Positions 170-18,790 of a stretch of 64,000 nucleotides of DNA are shown in pieces (the first letter of the stretch is position 1; each line of letters starts with the position of its first letter). The notes under the pieces were generated by a model, which was not told where the DNA came from, did no database searches, and saw only the letters and a program-made list of their open reading frames with translations. The stretch covers positions 464,213-528,212 of the forward strand of contig OZ246398.1 of NCBI GenBank assembly GCA_965230995.1, in the 5' to 3' direction. The translations under genes and the position numbers were made by a program. The stretch comes from an uncultured Candidatus Saccharibacteria bacterium. Its GTDB lineage: Bacteria > Patescibacteriota > Minisyncoccia > Phycocordibacterales > G965230995.

Positions 170-200
170 AAAACCCCAAAGAATATCTTTGGGATTTAAT
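170..200 (-). terminator. Intrinsic terminator hairpin (cccaaaga-atat-ctttggg plus T-run on minus strand), downstream of the partial tRNA-Leu 3' copy
   Basis: Inverted repeat plus U-tract read on the minus strand. Confidence 0.5.
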
Positions 201-204
201 GTTT

Positions 205-224
205 TTGTGGGCAGGAGAGGACTT
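205..224 (-). repeat. Partial duplicate of the tRNA-Leu(TAG) 3' end (T-loop to discriminator, ttgtgggcaggagaggactt). Att-like remnant.
   Basis: Identical 20 nt to 401-420, where the full tRNA ends; diverges upstream of the T-loop. Confidence 0.7.
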
Positions 225-227
225 GGT

Positions 228-290
228 CGCAACTCTTCTGCTACGATAAATCTACGCGACGAAGGTTGCGACCCCGCCTCCGCGACAAGT
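228..290. repeat. Copy A of a ~58-nt conserved module (ggtcgcaactcttctgctacgataaatctacgcgacgaaggttgcgaccccgcctc); forms a 9-bp stem with ~30-nt loop
   Basis: Near-identical copy at 11158-11215. Spurious ORFs 189..395 and 11140..11364 share the peptide NSSATINLR[D/N]EG.DPASAT only because of this nucleotide conservation. Confidence 0.6.
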
Positions 291-359
291 ATTATTTTTC
301 GTAAACTCAAAATAATCTTGTGTACCGCGTCCGGCTTTCAAGTCCTTACTTCCTCACAA

Positions 360-403
360 AACAAAAAGCCCCAGAGCTATTGCTCTGAAGCTTAATGTTT
401 TTG
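360..403 (-). terminator. Intrinsic terminator directly downstream of tRNA-Leu(TAG) (gcttcagagc-aata-gctctgggg plus T-run on minus strand)
   Basis: Hairpin plus U-tract. Confidence 0.6.
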
Positions 404-11061: not shown

Positions 11062-11440
11062 ATAGGGAGGGCGTGGCGAGGAGAGGGGTTGAGGGTCCGA
11101 ACCTTACGGGGTTAGTACCGTGATTGGATTTAGGAGGGATTGATTGAGGAATTCGGTCACAACTCTTCTGCTACGATAAATCTACGCAACGAAGGTCGCG
11201 ACCCCGCCTCGGCTACAGTTTCTCGTTCCTCGAAACTGGCTTCGCAGCCTCCGTCTTTCGAATCCCTCCCTATACGCTACATAAGTACAACAAAAAAACG
11301 CTATCGCGTTTGTTTTGTGTATTTTGTGAGGACTCGAACCTTACAGGTTCAGTGCATAAGTTAGGATTTTGATTGGGAGGGATTGATCCCGCAGTTACTA
11401 AGTAAAATAATTCGTTCGTAAACTCACTCTTATTTTACTA
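11062..11440. repeat. Mosaic of short repeated modules upstream of tRNA-Tyr. Includes an X module (gaaccttacRGgttMagt…gattggattt) at ~11088 and ~11336, a Z module (ggagggattgat) at ~11122 and ~11376, Y module copy B at 11158-11215, and ttcgtaaactca at ~11410 (also at ~303).
   Basis: Direct sequence comparison with 205-320 and 18544-18600. Internal terminator-like hairpin at ~11296-11325. Confidence 0.6.
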
Positions 11441-11573
11441 AGTACTGCTGGACGCGGCTCGACGTCGTACTCGCTCCGCTCCGTGCGACATGTCTCCGCC
11501 GGTTCGAATCCCACGCAAAAGCAAAACTGCTTTTGCTTCCCTACGCAAAAATGCACCAAAGGTGCATTTTTTT

Positions 11574-11655
11574 GTGCGTAGGGAGGGATTCGAACCCCCG
11601 TAGACTATGTCGCCTGATTTACAGTCAGGTGCGATTGACCACTCCGCCACCTACG
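11574..11655 (-). tRNA. tRNA-Tyr (anticodon GTA), long variable arm
   Basis: Acceptor gcgtagg/cctacgc, anticodon loop ctgtaaa, T-loop ttcgaat. Spurious ORF 11438..11650 overlaps it. Confidence 0.8.
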
Positions 11656-11766
11656 CATTTATAGGAACGAGTATAACATACTTTAATATTTTTGGTAGGG
11701 CAAAAAAGTATGACAAAATGGCAATTTTTGATATCATAAATACCATATAAATTTAATCCATTTTTT

Positions 11767-13868: not shown

Positions 13869-13940
13869 TGGGCCTATAGTTTCAATGGTAAAACGTCGGT
13901 CTCCAAAACCGTTGTTCTCCGTTCGAGTCGGAGTGGGCCC
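13869..13940 (+). tRNA. tRNA-Trp (anticodon CCA)
   Basis: Acceptor gggccta/tgggccc, anticodon arm tcggt-ctccaaa-accgt, T-loop ttcgagt. Confidence 0.7.
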
Positions 13941-13995
13941 GCAAACAAAAAACCGCGTCCGCCAGCTGGCGGAGCGGTTTTTTGTTTGCTGGGCG
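13941..13995. terminator. Long nested palindrome terminator (gcaaacaaaaaaccgc-gtccgccagctggcggag-gcggttttttgtttgc)
   Basis: 16-bp outer stem, inner hairpin, T-runs on both sides. Confidence 0.6.
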
Positions 13996-14099
13996 GAGGT
14001 ATGTGCGTTTGCACATTACGTCTCCGACTCGAAAGGGGGAGTTTTTTGAGCTTTGTATTTGTATAGAATTTTATCTTTCATTGTGCTATCCTTTTGTAA

Positions 14100-15425: not shown

Positions 15426-15550
15426 ATTGAGAACCTAATATTGTTCTAAATATAGATTTTTGTCTACACAAAAACCGCTTAACGCGGTTTGTTGTTAGTG
15501 CTGTTATCATTATGCATTTTTTTAATGCCATCCTTAATATTTATTGATAT

Positions 15551-15826
15551 CTATTTCTTTAGGCTAATAAAGAATACTCCCGAAGTAATAATGTCCAATA
15601 TCTGCCAGGTACTTTTATCAAGATAGAAAGGCCAAATAGGATTAAACAGAACCGCTGTTACAACAAAGATCCAACCCCACTTTTGACTATTTGTGGTAAA
15701 AGAATTATAAGCAGAATAACATGCAATTATCATTATTGCCCACCTTAAAAATTCATAGTAACCGTAAGGTAAACTAAATACGCCAACCAGCAGAAGAATT
15801 GCGGCAATAATTTTAATGTCTTTCAT
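15551..15826 (-). CDS. Small multi-TM membrane protein, hypothetical
   Basis: 91 aa, three hydrophobic segments. Confidence 0.35.
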   Translation of the reverse strand: MKDIKIIAAILLLVGVFSLPYGYYEFLRWAIMIIACYSAYNSFTTNSQKWGWIFVVTAVLFNPIWPFYLDKSTWQILDIITSGVFFISLKK

Positions 15827-15832
15827 AATTTA

Positions 15833-16900
15833 TTAATTATCAAATAAAGTGCCTAGGTCTAATATTCTTCCAATACTTTCTGCAGTACCTGTCTCAACAT
15901 AAGTTGGTATACCTAAAACACATCCAGAATCCTTTATCGCTACTCCACCCGAACTCCCGTGTTCAATTTTTGCAGACGTTTTTATATAACGAAACCCACC
16001 ATAGTATTCGAAACCAGAAACAATTCCATCAGTGACTGTGAGCGAAGAACCTCCAACACCAGGGTATCCTAATATTGAAATATGTTCGCCTATATTTGAA
16101 GAAGCGCAATAAGTATTGGAGGTTTTATTTTTTGCATATTTAGCTAAGTCAGCTAATGTACCAGAATTTTCTCCAGATGTAATCTTAGGAATTAAATAAA
16201 TAAAATCAGCTCCATATTTATATGTCTTATAATCAGAAACTTCATATAATAAGTAATTTTGTGGATTTTTGTAATCAGGATATAGAGCAAAAATACATAA
16301 AGGTGAAGAGTTGTCATCTGGTTGTGTAACATGTAGATTTGTTTCAACAAAATAAGTTGGAAGATTAGAAGTAGATGTTTTATATAAAACACCGGAGCCT
16401 GACTGTATCTCATCACCGCTATAGTCAGCTGAGCAAAATATTTTAACGATAGACGGAGATATTGAAGACAAAATATTATTTGTAGAATTATTATTAATAG
16501 TAACTATACTTGAATTTTTTATATTAGTTTCTAGTTTACTTATCTCTAGCTCTTTCTTTGCTAGTTCTATTTTTTGAAGACGCAATTCTTCTGTTGTAGA
16601 AGCAGTAATATTATTTAGTTTATTTTGGCTTTCCTGTAATTCTTTTATAGTATTTTGAGTTTTATTATATGACAAATATAAAAATAAAAATAAAAATAAA
16701 AATAAAAAGATAATCAGTACTGATGATCCTATAATGTTACGATTATTTTTGACCTTAGACTTACAAAGTTTTAGAAAGTTCGATAATATTAAAATAATAT
16801 TTATTGTTGATTCACGATTATCAAACTTTTTACCACATTCATCGCAAAAAATGCTGTTATTTTCTAATTCATTTCCACAATTGTCACAAAAAACTCTCAT
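15833..16900 (-). CDS. Membrane-anchored trypsin-like (S1) serine peptidase with N-terminal double zinc ribbon
   Basis: CxxC…CxxC twice at the N-terminus, TM helix, coiled coil, C-terminal HGSSGG serine motif. Contains an in-frame (aaaata)n hexanucleotide repeat encoding FLFLFL. Confidence 0.55.
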   Translation of the reverse strand: MRVFCDNCGNELENNSIFCDECGKKFDNRESTINIILILSNFLKLCKSKVKNNRNIIGSSVLIIFLFLFLFLFLYLSYNKTQNTIKELQESQNKLNNITASTTEELRLQKIELAKKELEISKLETNIKNSSIVTINNNSTNNILSSISPSIVKIFCSADYSGDEIQSGSGVLYKTSTSNLPTYFVETNLHVTQPDDNSSPLCIFALYPDYKNPQNYLLYEVSDYKTYKYGADFIYLIPKITSGENSGTLADLAKYAKNKTSNTYCASSNIGEHISILGYPGVGGSSLTVTDGIVSGFEYYGGFRYIKTSAKIEHGSSGGVAIKDSGCVLGIPTYVETGTAESIGRILDLGTLFDN

Positions 16901-16901
16901 T

Positions 16902-17957
16902 TTATATGCCTAAAAAGTTATCCACCAGAGAATAATAATCAAGCATTTTATTTGCTTCATTTTTTGATGAGCTATAGTCACGGTCAGACCAGCTGTCAAT
17001 TGATTCGCATAAATAATAACCAGCCCACTCCATGTCTATGGATGCGTTTTTATAAGAAGAAGGTAATCCTGTAAAGTTGTCTCTCAGATTTTTTGAATTA
17101 GTTTGAACTGCATAACAACCATTAATAACAGCACCCGCATAAACTGATGCCAGACTATAGTCACCTTTGTTATAAGCATTTAAGTAAGAAGTGTAGTCAT
17201 CTACTGATTTACTAAAGCTATTACGTATAGAAAGTAATTGATTTGAAAAAGATTTTAGAACCTCTTCTCCTCGTGCTTGGTCAGCTAATGTATTTGCACT
17301 ACTTATTGCCGCTTGAGCATTTGCTTCCGCTTTATCTTTTGCGGCTTGTGCTGAGGCAGCAGCTTGGCGACTTTTTTCTGCTAAGGCCTTACTTGCTGCA
17401 GAATCATTTTCTAAGGCTGTCATTAACCAGCCTCCAATCTCTGTTAATTTTGTTTGGACGTTATTATAATCTGGATAGGTTGAAGATATAGATTGTAAAT
17501 CTGTTTGTGCTGATTTTAAATCTTTAACAGTAGATGTGGAACTAATTTTTGCTACCGTATTATCAAAAAGAGTTTTGTAATCAGAAAATTTTTGATTATC
17601 TTCTTTTAATTTTGCGATCTCTTTTTTCTGGTTTTCAGTGCCATAATTTGAATCTAGAGTATTTAATATGCTCAATGAGCCAGTATAATCTTTATTTCTT
17701 TGAAGTTTCTCTGCGGTGTTAATTTTTGATGAGATTTTAATATAGGCGTTCGCATTATATCCACCATATAAAAGTCCAATAACTACTACAACACCAATAA
17801 TATAAGTCACTATTGGATTTTTCCAATTAAGTTTAAATTCTGTTATTGTATTTTTCTTTTCACTAGAACTAACAGATTCTGCTCCTAGAGAAACACCGCA
17901 AGAACGACAAAATTTGCTACCTTCACGATTTTCCTTTCCACATTCATCACAATGCAT
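16902..17957 (-). CDS. Zinc-ribbon / single-TM / extracytoplasmic coiled-coil protein; paralogous architecture to the downstream peptidase
   Basis: N-terminal CDECGK…CRSCG, TM helix, Ala/Gln-rich coiled coil. Confidence 0.4.
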   Translation of the reverse strand: MHCDECGKENREGSKFCRSCGVSLGAESVSSSEKKNTITEFKLNWKNPIVTYIIGVVVVIGLLYGGYNANAYIKISSKINTAEKLQRNKDYTGSLSILNTLDSNYGTENQKKEIAKLKEDNQKFSDYKTLFDNTVAKISSTSTVKDLKSAQTDLQSISSTYPDYNNVQTKLTEIGGWLMTALENDSAASKALAEKSRQAAASAQAAKDKAEANAQAAISSANTLADQARGEEVLKSFSNQLLSIRNSFSKSVDDYTSYLNAYNKGDYSLASVYAGAVINGCYAVQTNSKNLRDNFTGLPSSYKNASIDMEWAGYYLCESIDSWSDRDYSSSKNEANKMLDYYSLVDNFLGI

Positions 17958-17970
17958 GTTATTTTAAAAA

Positions 17971-18192
17971 TTATCTAATAAAATATCCGACATCTTTATT
18001 ATAAATCTTGGCAAAAGTTTGAAGTTCGACTACGTCAACTCTTTGCTGTCCTGATTCAACATTTGAAATATGAGATTGCGGCCGTTTTAATTTTTTTGCG
18101 ACTTCAACCTGTGTCAAACCTGATTCAATTCTAGCTTTTCTTAAACGCTCCACGAAATAGGCATATTCCTTTGTTCTAATTGACTTTGTCAT
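17971..18192 (-). CDS. XRE-family helix-turn-helix transcriptional regulator
   Basis: HTH_XRE signature LTQVEVAKKL…SHISNVESG. Likely start at MTKSIRT (the track starts 10 codons earlier). Confidence 0.7.
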   Translation of the reverse strand: MTKSIRTKEYAYFVERLRKARIESGLTQVEVAKKLKRPQSHISNVESGQQRVDVVELQTFAKIYNKDVGYFIR

Positions 18193-18543
18193 AATACTAA
18201 CATTGTCTATCCAAATAATCAATATCCAAATTTTAGATATTGTAATAAACTGTATTTAGTTCCTTCACACCCGCCCCCAACCCAAAACTGACGGAAACCA
18301 AAACAGCATTTCTCCCTAGGTCTCTCCGGCGGGCGAGAAAAGAAAGTTGTTCATGTTTTGCAAAAAACGAGCACCGAATCGGAATCGTCAGGACATTTTC
18401 AAATATTCGCCGAGGGTGATCCAGAGTCGGGTGGTAGGCTTCATTCTCCGCTTTCATTTTTGAAGGTGATTATCGCAAATGATATGATTAGAACACTAAA
18501 AACAAAAATCCCAGACACTTTCGTGTCTGAGATTAATGTTTTT

Positions 18544-18600
18544 GGTGCCGAAGGAGGGACTTGAACCTTACAGGTTCAGTACCCCGATTGGATTTTTCTG
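18544..18600 (-). repeat. Partial duplicate of the tRNA-Leu(CAA) 3' end (18544-18566), fused to an X-module copy (gaaccttacaggttcagtaccccgattggattt)
   Basis: Identical ~23 nt to 18707-18729; terminator hairpins on both sides. Confidence 0.7.
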
Positions 18601-18708
18601 TTCGTTCCACTCCAGAAAAATGCACAATCGGGCTTCAGTCCCTCACGAAAGGTTCCCCGAACCTTTCTCTTCGTCACACAAAAACCGCATAACGCGGTTT
18701 GTTGTTTG

Positions 18709-18790
18709 TGCCGAAGGAGGGACTTGAACCCTCATCCCTTGCGAGACACGATTTTGAGTCGTGCGCGTATACCAATTCCGCCACTTCGGC
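18709..18790 (-). tRNA. tRNA-Leu (anticodon CAA)
   Basis: Acceptor gccgaag/cttcggc, anticodon loop ctcaaaa, long variable arm, T-loop ttcaagt. Confidence 0.8.

Follow-up and report, generated by a model that had tools for sequence, protein, structure and literature searches.

An uncatalogued repeat family behind tRNA genes of Patescibacteria, with a member at a tRNA-Leu(CAA) locus

What lies behind a tRNA gene whose 3' end is found a second time a short distance downstream, on the far side of a terminator? The question is raised by tRNA-Leu(CAA) in the window, the stretch of 64,000 nt from an uncultured Candidatus Saccharibacteria bacterium that was analysed here. The segment between the two tRNA ends, which we call E1, belongs to a large and uncatalogued family of repeats that in Patescibacteria lie behind tRNA genes of many kinds. 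Our tentative view of E1 is that it is one of a set of small cassettes, about 90-170 nt long, which are non-coding, fold in a strand-specific way and would colonise the 3' flanks of tRNA genes in these bacteria.

The element at tRNA-Leu(CAA)

The gene itself is intact and lies on the minus strand at 18708-18790, where it was called by ARAGORN and by Rfam (tRNA, 61.9 bits). The earlier note had claimed a duplication of its tail, and this is borne out: the 23-nt segment S1 (GGTTCAAGTCCCTCCTTCGGCAC, 18708-18730, minus strand), comprising the T loop, the 3' strands of the T stem and acceptor stem and the discriminator, is present again at 18545-18567 (S2), and a self-comparison of the window matches 31 nt (18700-18730 with 18537-18567) at 94%. 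The 19-mer CAAGTCCCTCCTTCGGCAC occurs exactly twice in the 64 kb, at 18708-18726 and 18545-18563, with no such repeat expected from 100 shuffles. Along the minus strand the tRNA is followed by a 7-bp hairpin with a T-rich tail (18682-18700), by 135 nt, by the partial copy and by a strong terminator with a stem of 12 pairs (18534-18507); the segment of about 130 nt carrying an "X module", which had been noted between the tail copies together with a terminator, is the 135-nt segment (E1). The 163 nt of the element at this locus contain no ORF.

All parts of the unit lie on the minus strand. The trailer and terminator hairpin T1 (18680-18707; AAACCGC GTTAT GCGGTTT, then TTGTGTG) are followed by A_acc (GTGACGAAG, 18669-18677), which by sequence and fold is antisense to the acceptor 3' strand and discriminator, with one A.G mismatch. 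In the fold, the 9-bp hairpin hp1 (GAAAGGTTC GGG GAACCTTTC, 18647-18667) separates this from the second antisense segment, A_T with its junction (GAGGGACT, 18633-18644), which is antisense to the T-stem 3' strand and part of the T loop and then reads GAAG. Hairpin A (18582-18632), defined by fold and covariation, has a lower stem CCCGATTG/CAATCGGG, a middle stem and an apex GAG..CGAA, and it is followed by the junction TACT and the X hairpin GAACCT-GTA-AGGTTC (18563-18581), the core of the X module (18563-18595). S2 pairs with A_T and A_acc and closes the fold, and the trailer CAAAAACATTAATC with terminator T0 (18497-18544; sequence and terminator prediction) follows. In its 5' part E1 carries the tRNA 3' end in exact Watson-Crick antisense, interrupted by hp1; this part pairs with the downstream sense copy and closes a three-way junction of hairpin A, a conserved RUACU and the X hairpin with its GUA loop (predicted fold, -61.8 kcal/mol; z = -6.0). 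T1 is the centre of a quasi-palindrome linking S1 with the antisense arm; as a terminator it is weak, with 7 bp, and was not called on the minus strand.

The trailer CAAAAACATTAATC of E1 is of a type found behind tRNA-Leu(TAA) and tRNA-Leu(TAG) in the same genome; S2 retains the AAAAACATTAA trailer typical of the genome's other Leu tRNAs, and its trailer differs from that of tRNA-Leu(TAG) by one extra C. The trailer and terminator after S1 have a 94% copy at 15466-15501 (minus strand), a solo "GCAC + trailer + T1" immediately upstream of miaA, and 15466-15501 and 18676-18711 bracket a 3.2-kb insert, the tRNA-Leu(CAA)/miaA junction being a variable spot. An apparent encoded CCA on the partial copy (GGCACCAAAAAC) is probably meaningless; no tRNA gene inspected in the window encodes a complete CCA.

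Reproduction of the partial copy in independent assemblies, on which the note had staked its claim, was obtained for one half of the unit. Two independent Logan assemblies from two sequencing runs (L123 and L124) are 100% identical to the window over 18592-16679, so that they reproduce the unit from the X hairpin through the partial tRNA copy and its trailer to the terminator; both contigs begin inside hairpin A, which leaves the 5' half of E1 and the tRNA junction without independent confirmation. Logan contigs break inside the elements, which are thus repeats that trouble assemblers, and such breaks are what an assembly artefact or a chance repeat might lead one to expect. We give that reading next to no credence, and for the 3' half of E1 it is already refuted: X, S2 and T0 are exactly identical in the two assemblies, no chance matches are expected, and the same architecture is present in more than 100 unrelated assemblies.

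The layout was found at four of the seven tRNAs of the window and at more than 100 other loci in Patescibacteria, in keeping with the earlier view that this is no one-off duplication. The tRNA-Leu(TAG) locus (tRNA at 403-484) has a like layout, as had been proposed, with an exact 30-nt repeat at 196-225 and 392-421 and an element, E2 (196-362, minus strand), whose arms are as in E1 and whose core is of a different, Y type. Two units lie behind tRNA-Tyr (11574-11656), both on the minus strand: E3 (11327-11546; 28 bits) consists of a Tyr antisense arm, a long insert, the X hairpin and then a non-Tyr tail, and E4 (11091-11277) of a Tyr antisense arm, a Y-type core that is 92% identical to that of E2 over 63 nt, and then a diverged X. 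The X module recurs here at 11330-11353 (one mismatch in 24) and in more diverged form at 11099-11131 (85%); two copies had indeed been reported near this gene, but they lie downstream of it on the minus strand and are "upstream" only in plus-strand coordinates. Behind tRNA-Trp (13870-13942) is a truncated unit (13987-14035, plus strand) of A_acc, hp1 and A_T+GAAAG only, which lacks hairpin A, X and S2.

The family and its common fold

Among the matches listed, the 18-mer of X was present at no fewer than 118 loci, nearly all of them from Patescibacteria; a same-strand tRNA lay upstream of 96 of 123 X copies, typically 100-140 nt away, and the tRNAs ahead of X copies were of at least 17 amino-acid types. 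The sequence past X is the own 3' end of the upstream tRNA. A model, R1, gave 129 copies in 688 kb of X-bearing loci and none in 572 kb of control contigs selected solely for carrying the same tRNA tail, and the elements can now be annotated by covariance model. At the loci examined, which were gathered with the exact X 18-mer and are a biased sample, 91 of 133 tRNAs were followed by an element. The element is always oriented as its tRNA; it stands directly behind a terminator, which leaves no room for a promoter, and its own terminator follows. The full-text literature searched, a coverage thin in subscription journals, contained no description of these elements.

Covariation had been put forward as the means of telling a folded RNA from an att core, and the result clearly favours base-paired hairpins. 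Compensatory changes were found at 9-10 of the 10 pairs of hairpin A (74 and 129 copies) and at five of six pairs of the X hairpin, where 98.8% of cells are paired, and the GUA loop and RUACU are nearly invariant among the copies examined. The X module is merely the commonest version of a covarying hairpin. Across the family hp1 always has about 9 bp and a 4-nt loop, with unrelated sequences (median z, -4.7). The sense strand folds more stably than the antisense strand in 40 of 47 elements and in 65 of 79 copies of hairpin A.

Searches against known RNAs gave no match. At the gathering threshold of Rfam 15 only the seven tRNAs matched and no element did; with E up to 10 nothing credible fell on 18541-18679, 196-362 or 11080-11546, the best overlap being tmRNA_permuted at 15 bits (threshold 47; E = 0.63). 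ARAGORN reported no tmRNA, standard or permuted, and neither ARAGORN nor Rfam found a tRNA cloverleaf in E1. Group IIC introns insert behind terminators and are six-domain ribozymes with a catalytic domain V; such an intron was rejected here, the element having 135 nt and no Rfam group II match. Ribozyme, K-turn, loop-E and box C/D motifs were likewise set aside, their consensus motifs being unmatched at the conserved junctions and Rfam support being absent.

The antisense arm follows one strand of the tRNA gene closely. At G.U or mismatched sites of the acceptor stem, the arm complemented the 3' strand in Watson-Crick fashion in 26 cases and was identical to the tRNA 5' strand in one, so that a degenerate tandem tRNA copy or pseudogene was rejected; where S1 and S2 differ, the arm agrees with the real tRNA 35 times as against 16. 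Its pairing comprises 467 Watson-Crick, 16 G.U and 57 mismatched positions, and S1, trailer, terminator and arm often form one long near-perfect palindrome. The length of the duplicated segment varies, ending anywhere from the tRNA end to 27 nt past it, and hp1 and hairpin A split the antisense copy at fixed positions. In model-aligned copies without a T-loop insert the arm pairs (at least four of five) with the following S in 27 of 53; some of the non-pairing copies are register shifts. Identity pairs of tRNAs, for instance G3:U70 of tRNA-Ala, are not preserved in the arm, which is therefore no aminoacylation mimic.

The copies also behave like repeats. At one locus (L088) an Arg-type unit is split exactly at its X|S junction by a Val-type unit, further chains, composites and tandem arrays are present among the loci, and copies at L052, L027, L029, L107 and L115 lie behind protein-coding genes with no tRNA. 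Hairpin A is more similar at different tRNAs of one genome than between genomes (median 73% versus 58%, p = 4e-8). At tRNA-Leu(CAA) the window holds an X-type element, and L119 and the relative L126 (ParB 81% identical) hold a Y-type element; L119 may be a chimeric contig, its breakpoint lying inside the tRNA, and the L126 contig ends inside the element. A further contig, L125, has parB without an adjoining tRNA. One empty site was found (L243), in which miaA follows the tRNA after 10 nt; as this is the sole such site and the relative is fairly distant (miaA 58% identical), recent gain or loss is not demonstrated. It came from a metagenome scan with the tRNA tail alone. Most of the tRNAs returned by that scan were followed by nothing; it also gave a further Y-like copy (L221) and an element of a third type (L224). 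An earlier metagenome scan, for S2 joined to its own trailer as in the exact empty allele, had no match.

Proposed insertion cassettes and the rival readings

The explanation we favour, with confidence that stops a little short of even, is a non-autonomous insertion cassette recombining at the T-loop/X sequence. Each unit comprises S, the tRNA 3' end copy from the T loop onward; T, a trailer with its terminator; A, which is antisense to S in exact Watson-Crick complementarity and is usually interrupted by hp1; and the core, with the conserved three-way junction of hairpin A, RUACU and the GUA-looped X hairpin. We infer that entry would be by recombination within the invariant T-loop/X sequence (..GTAAGGTTCGA..), much like a Campbell-type insertion, the enzyme and any circular intermediate being putative. 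On entry the unit would give the tRNA a new 3' end and terminator, and S2, the older end, would be shifted downstream along with the trailer and terminator that belong to it, so that under this model the tRNA stays intact, a direct repeat is made and head-to-tail chaining becomes possible. Complementarity of the arm to the resident tail may be upheld by templated copying across the terminator palindrome, through gene conversion or through template switching of the quasi-palindrome type. The fold would arise on the sense strand, as read-through RNA or single-stranded DNA, and be what the putative machinery recognises.

Several observations count against the cassette model. It does not cleanly explain how arms for a new tRNA species are acquired, and a unit with the wrong S would break its target tRNA. 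Neither a recombinase next to an element nor an ORF-bearing version, a circular form or an insertion event was observed: no recombinase, transposase, HUH endonuclease or reverse transcriptase adjoined any copy examined, including that at L052; the neighbouring ORFs in the window encode an HTH protein, Zn-ribbon proteins, DUF6804, MiaA and ParB; no autonomous version with an ORF was seen among the copies. The proportion of model-aligned copies with arm-S pairing is a further such point, as is the conservation of junction nucleotides and loops across Patescibacteria lineages in elements always oriented as their tRNA, which would match a host-selected RNA.

The main rival, possible but in our judgement doubtful, is such a host RNA: a putative non-coding "tRNA-tail RNA" co-transcribed with the tRNA. 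The weak first terminator would be read through, and the antisense arm and S2 would close a three-way-junction RNA ending at its own terminator; the tail helix would give tRNA-like ends for RNase P, RNase Z or exonucleases and for CCA addition, or alternatively tie the level of the RNA to that of the tRNA, and the conserved junction and loops would bind a putative host protein. Covariation of every tRNA-independent stem, the better folding of the sense strand, the constant orientation and the terminators directly before and after the element all fit this proposal, and at E1 the first terminator is indeed weak. However, occupancy is patchy and the same tRNA holds different cores in relatives, copies are homogenised within a genome, and some have no nearby tRNA; many are truncated, chained, chimeric or left with a decayed S2, so that the closing helix cannot form, and the arm's disregard of identity pairs does not suit an aminoacylation mimic. 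Quite improbable, in our view, is that the units are passive by-products of replication in which neither fold nor element is functional. Template switches, prompted by the palindromic terminators of tRNA genes that are highly transcribed, would yield sense-antisense-sense triplications of the tail, and gene conversion through the common T-loop sequence would spread shared hairpins between sites; the long palindromes, the strictly Watson-Crick arm and the variable length of the duplicated segment are as this process predicts. Independent switches would not, however, arrive at one hp1 geometry, one hairpin A apex, RUACU and the GUA loop in many genera and at more than 100 sites; hp1 and hairpin A interrupt the antisense copy at fixed positions, and the compensatory changes in hairpin A, X and hp1 point to selection for pairing.

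Direct repeats from the T loop to the tRNA end are known from many tRNA att sites, and the repeat seen here resembles them; with the 3.2-kb insert at the variable tRNA-Leu(CAA)/miaA junction, it suggests scars of integrase-driven islands or prophages at the T-loop site, with attL and attR brought close after loss of cargo. We consider this very unlikely. No integrase is present here or among the neighbours examined, and the uniform tiny size, the antisense arm and the covarying stems are not what arm-type protein binding sites would give. A scan of 2.9 million viral contigs with the X 18-mer returned only two chance matches inside coding sequence, so that an origin as phage attP was dropped.

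Known systems and meaning for Patescibacteria

Like tyrosine-integrase islands and prophages of the T-loop sublocation, the units have the 3' part of the tRNA directly repeated on either side (S1 and S2, exact over 23 nt); as in those elements the insert supplies a working 3' end and displaces the old one, at a hotspot of strain variation. They differ in a total of about 160 nt without integrase or other gene, in hairpins that covary and an att-like segment that is also present in antisense, in their absence from viral contigs, and in the use of one core at no fewer than 17 tRNA species. Another parallel is with integron attC and the attP(+) hairpin of CTX phage (IMEX): these too are imperfect palindromes in which structure is conserved over sequence, are strand-specific with extrahelical branches on one strand, occur in tandem arrays, and have a stem that is a Watson-Crick replica of the target duplex (dif or R/L boxes there, the tRNA gene end here). 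The units, in contrast, have no R-box (GTTRRRY), no dif-like core and no demonstrated IntI or Xer link; in place of RYYYAAC ... GTTRRRY for the attC R''/R' sites they read GGTTCAAG / GGTTCGAA, with C at the fourth position, intI was absent among the neighbours examined, the copies lie at scattered loci behind tRNAs, the stem varies by site because it copies each tRNA, and a single-stranded DNA form is here purely hypothetical.

With MITEs, REP/BIME and palindrome-associated elements the units share a small, non-coding, multi-copy, hairpin-rich make-up, an intergenic position often beside terminators, and copies that are alike within a genome or decayed; they have no fixed terminal inverted repeats or short fixed-length target duplication, the "arms" being instead copies of the flanking tRNA (20-50 nt) that differ by site, and their association with tRNA tails is strong. 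With tRNA-like structured RNAs (tmRNA, YrlA/Y RNA, mascRNA and viral tRNA-like structures) and plant dicistronic tRNA-snoRNA genes the unit shares the 3' strand of a tRNA acceptor/T arm at its own 3' end and a place directly behind a tRNA, where co-transcription and tRNA-type processing are plausible; the unit, however, is fully paired and so forms no T loop, its acceptor pairs are perfected rather than kept as in the tRNA, and it has no Rfam match. Template-switch mutagenesis at quasi-palindromes, established in E. coli, corrects imperfect inverted repeats beside hairpins and would explain the perfect complementarity of the arm to the tRNA tail, but it is a mutational process and not an element, and the conserved core is not accounted for. 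CRISPR-like guide arrays and TIGR-Tas (reported from CPR) were rejected, the units here being 90-170 nt with a three-way junction and no adjacent effector gene, as against TIGR units of 36 nt (PMC12045711).

A bolder form of the cassette reading, which we think unlikely, would make the units a new class: a protein-less, viroid-sized mobile unit that is a self-reprogramming, structure-guided, tRNA-specific insertion system. Its fold would display, through antisense arm and sense copy, a Watson-Crick replica of the duplex end of the tRNA gene, a host recombination or repair enzyme would use this replica for insertion at the T loop, and the tRNA ahead of the landing site, whatever its type, would afterwards serve as template for new arms. 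If this is true, attC or the attP of CTX phage would have a counterpart that is single-stranded or made of RNA; we know of no element with such a target-copying step.

Patescibacteria have tiny, streamlined genomes, yet many of their tRNA genes carry these elements, even if the count given above comes from motif-selected loci. Under either reading the elements break assemblies, produce false "tRNA fragments" and mark variable islands. If they are host RNAs, a large class of RNA with a tie to tRNA expression would have gone unrecognised in a major bacterial radiation that is still poorly understood; if they are mobile, they would represent a new way to occupy a tRNA gene harmlessly and might lead to a recombination machinery able to read folded nucleic acid.

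The duplicated tail of tRNA-Leu(CAA)

The last 23 nt of tRNA-Leu(CAA) (18708-18790, minus strand), GGTTCAAGTCCCTCCTTCGGCAC at 18708-18730, recurred at 18545-18567; with its flanks the repeat spanned 31 nt at 94% identity, and a 19-mer from the tail occurred exactly twice in the window against 0 expected by chance. Read along the minus strand, the tRNA was followed by a short hairpin that runs into a T-rich stretch (18682-18700), the 135-nt segment E1, the partial copy, CAAAAACATTAATC and a 12-pair terminator, which bears out the earlier note in its claim of a recurring tail set off by a terminator and a segment of about 130 nt. Two independent Logan assemblies were identical to the window from 18592 to 16679, so the X hairpin near the end of this locus and the partial copy are not an accident of assembly; both contigs begin inside E1, so that an artefact is excluded for its 3' half and the 5' half is read from the window alone.

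The trailer behind the copied tail (S2), AAAAACATTAA, also stood behind tRNA-Leu(TAA) and behind each of the two tail copies at tRNA-Leu(TAG), and a different trailer and terminator now stand behind tRNA-Leu(CAA) itself and recur 3.2 kb off at 15466-15501. Most simply read, the sequence that now separates the tRNA body from S2 would have arrived as a block with its own tail and terminator, the exact insertion junction not being placeable since S2 is identical to the real tail (S1). A 36-nt direct repeat (94%; 15466-15501 and 18676-18711), comprising the final 4 nt of the tRNA together with the trailer and terminator hairpin behind it, flanks 3.2 kb (15502-18675) that contain E1, S2 and genes for an HTH protein, a DUF6804 protein and two Zn-ribbon proteins, of which one has a trypsin-like domain; no recombinase is encoded in this stretch. 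In a more distant relative (L243; tRNA 89%, MiaA 58% identical) miaA begins 10 nt after the tRNA, an empty site, and from this adjacency together with the direct-repeat bracketing the entire stretch looks like an insertion at a tRNA/miaA hotspot.

The 5' part of E1 carries the tRNA tail in reverse-complement form, split into two pieces: GTGACGAAG is antisense to the acceptor 3' strand and discriminator, and GAGGGACT to the 3' strand of the T stem and some of the T loop, with a 9-bp hairpin (hp1) between them. The second piece is followed by GAAG, a long hairpin A, TACT and the X hairpin (GAACCT-GTA-AGGTTC), whose 3' strand continues directly as the second copy of the tail. In the predicted fold the antisense pieces pair with S2 to give two three-way junctions on one continuous 3' strand, and E1 as a 139-nt RNA reached -61.8 kcal/mol where shuffles gave -38.7 (z = -6.0). 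Similar folds were obtained for the inserts behind tRNA-Leu(TAG) and tRNA-Tyr (z = -5.6 and -3.1), each beginning with antisense of its own tRNA's tail. The X module, reported earlier from the segment and twice upstream of tRNA-Tyr, was present in all three places, but the two further occurrences lie downstream of tRNA-Tyr in transcription. Behind tRNA-Trp (13987-14035, plus strand) we found a terminator and, after it, an antisense arm, hp1 and another antisense stretch with GAAAG at its end, with no hairpin A, X or second tail for this unit anywhere in the window; no such element stood behind tRNA-Leu(TAA), tRNA-Cys or tRNA-Gln.

A family of elements at tRNA tails

The same layout at two leucine tRNAs had been taken to mean that the duplication was not a one-off, and the survey agreed: with one genome per species scanned, the 18-mer ACTGAACCTGTAAGGTTC matched at least 118 stretches. 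Among the matches listed, almost all were Patescibacteria MAGs (Paceibacteria, Nomurabacteria, Kaiserbacteria, Zambryskibacteria, Taylorbacteria, Minisyncoccia and many labelled Saccharibacteria), and 96 of 123 copies had a same-strand tRNA upstream, usually 100-140 nt off. These tRNAs were Ser, Gly, Leu, Gln, Lys, Arg, Ile, Val, Glu, Ala, Phe, Pro, Tyr, Cys, Met, Asp and Trp, to which the covariance model added His. In each tRNA-linked copy the bases after X were the 3' end of that particular tRNA; the duplicated stretch reached at least the tRNA end and in some copies up to 27 nt further into the trailer and terminator, and a large subclass carried a 14-nt hairpin within the T-loop copy (GAT[AAGCGTACTCGCGG]TCC). 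The core covariance model found 129 copies in 688 kb of loci collected by the 18-mer, about 30 of them lacking the exact 18-mer, and 0 in 572 kb of control metagenome contigs chosen solely for carrying an identical tRNA-Leu tail; in the window it scored E1 at 72.8 bits and the first unit behind tRNA-Tyr (E3) at 28 bits. No family in Rfam 15 matched any of the elements, which are neither tRNA nor tmRNA, and a literature search found no description of them.

A second, Y-type core (..TCGAAAG-CGGAG-hairpin-CGAGNCSGGGTCG-hairpin-GTGACC) lies between antisense and sense tRNA arms as in the X type, with 14 copies in the DNA examined (window 196-362 and 11091-11277; loci L003, L010, L063, L064, L072, L075, L097, L101, L119 and L126). 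Its first hairpin has a GAG..CGAA apex in common with hairpin A in some copies (L072 and E2, the element behind tRNA-Leu(TAG)), and tandem units in locus L224 represent a third type of core. Short-read Logan contigs (L123, L124 and L128) stop inside hairpin A or the Y core, making the elements assembly breakpoints in these genomes.

The folded strand and its antisense arm

At the base of hairpin A, 74 copies showed compensatory changes at 9 of 10 pairs (86% paired), with a covariation score that none of 500 shuffles reached and that collapsed in slid controls; with 129 copies all 10 pairs were so supported. Neither these counts nor those for X below are probabilities, since the larger alignment had been fitted to the model and its members are related to one another. 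The X hairpin, in copies not picked by the exact 18-mer, took forms such as GAGTCT/AGACTC, GGTCAT/ATGACC, GAAGTT/AACTTC and GACGAT/ATCGTC, with double changes at 5 of 6 pairs and 98.8% of cells paired, and its 3' strand thus need not be the T-loop sequence GGTTC; the GUA loop was essentially invariant and the preceding RUACU strongly conserved. The shape of hp1 was strikingly uniform (1 nt, 9 bp, 4-nt loop, 9 bp, GU; median z -4.7) in unrelated sequences, and the tRNA-sense strand was the better folder in 40 of 47 elements and 65 of 79 hairpin A copies (p about 1e-9). The element is therefore a folded strand and the X module a base-paired hairpin rather than a conserved duplex core, which answers the question of RNA or att core that the earlier note had left to covariation among X copies.

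Many copies (for example L037:85-164, L035 and L045) carry the pentamer GUACU three times, at the junction ahead of X, at the hairpin A apex (GAGUGUACUCAC) and in the 14-nt T-loop-copy hairpin (AAGCGUACUCGCGG); it could be a repeated protein-binding or cleavage site. At the tRNA-Tyr loci of three MAGs (L035, L045 and L046) the terminators behind the orthologous genes were nearly identical and the hp1 stems wholly different in sequence at equal shape, which points to hp1 turning over much faster than its surroundings or being swapped.

The 5' arm is antisense and no duplicated tRNA 5' half: at acceptor G.U pairs or mismatches, G3:U70 of tRNA-Ala included, it complemented the 3' strand by Watson-Crick pairing in 26 cases and matched the tRNA 5' strand in one. 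Arm and tail were Watson-Crick paired at 467 positions, G.U at 16 and mismatched at 57; where S1 and S2 differ, the arm matched the real tRNA at 35 sites versus 16, and the tRNA tail, trailer, terminator and arm often formed one long palindrome. Such a pattern is easier to reconcile with templated copying of DNA than with selection acting solely on an RNA helix.

Turnover and possible origin

Most telling was locus L088 (259-690), where the order behind tRNA-Arg(GCG) was Arg tail, terminator, Arg antisense arm, hairpin A, X, Val-like tail, terminator, Val-like antisense arm, hairpin A', X and Arg-like tail, as would arise if a tail-terminator-arm-core-X unit had entered the X|tail junction of another; the nesting would place the crossover in the shared ..GTAAGGTTCGA.. 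sequence. Several other findings agree with such repeat-like behaviour. Further chains or composites were seen in L047, L054, L050, L038 and the two units behind tRNA-Tyr in the window. The arm paired with the tail that follows in 27 of 53 model-aligned copies, some of the remainder being register shifts. Other copies stood behind protein-coding genes with just a few bases of tRNA tail upstream (L052, L027, L029, L107 and L115), the clearest case being L052 (JBLHQB010000018.1, labelled Patiriisocius sp., a Bacteroidota label that may reflect a mis-binned contig), with five copies in 8 kb between genes for HD-domain, Schlafen/AlbA_2 and FtsK-gamma proteins and no tRNA on the contig. Hairpin A was more alike at different tRNAs within one genome than between genomes (median identity 73% vs 58%, p = 4e-8). 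At tRNA-Leu(CAA) itself the window has an X-type element and L126 (ParB 81% identical) a Y-type with the same tail. L119 (Logan SRR14271366, 1210-1480) was identical to the window from ParB to the anticodon arm, then showed four substitutions, all in the variable loop, the T stem (as a compensatory pair) and the 3' strand of the acceptor, and beyond the tRNA had a Y-type element followed by DUF1653 and a dissimilar miaA; the contig could be a chimera joined within the tRNA or a real second haplotype whose tRNA tail was replaced.

We tentatively favour, at somewhat short of an even chance, a non-autonomous insertion cassette that would recombine at the T-loop/X sequence, supply the tRNA with a replacement tail and terminator, and require its sense-strand fold; arms for new tRNA species may come from quasi-palindrome template switching across the terminator. 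No enzyme for it was identified among the genes beside the copies examined. The main rival, rather doubtful in our judgement, is a host RNA that read-through would produce and pairing of arm with tail would close, a reading that would account for the constant orientation and for junction and loop nucleotides conserved across lineages but leaves decay, chaining, turnover and the tRNA-less copies unexplained. That the elements are passive by-products of replication is improbable, as this cannot account for a conserved, covarying core, and integrase scars are very improbable, with no integrase found beside the copies examined, the X motif absent from the viral contigs scanned, and covariation not expected.

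By analogy, the cassette's mode would be most like a cross between a tRNA-targeting integrative element, with which it shares a tail duplicated from the T loop and a replaced working tail, and folded recombination sites such as attC and CTX-phage attP, in which structure is likewise conserved, strand-specific and has a stem replicating the target duplex. However, no recombinase gene lies in or beside the elements examined, and they have no R-box or dif core; in genomic behaviour they resemble MITEs, but without element-borne inverted repeats or a short target duplication. Small non-coding repeats at tRNA genes and structured RNAs are known kinds, and we know of no precedent for a conserved three-way junction flanked by antisense and sense arms copied from the target. 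The tail duplication is real, non-random and far more general than was visible from the window sequence, and it belongs to a family of structured elements, so far uncatalogued, that is linked to the tails of tRNA genes in Patescibacteria.
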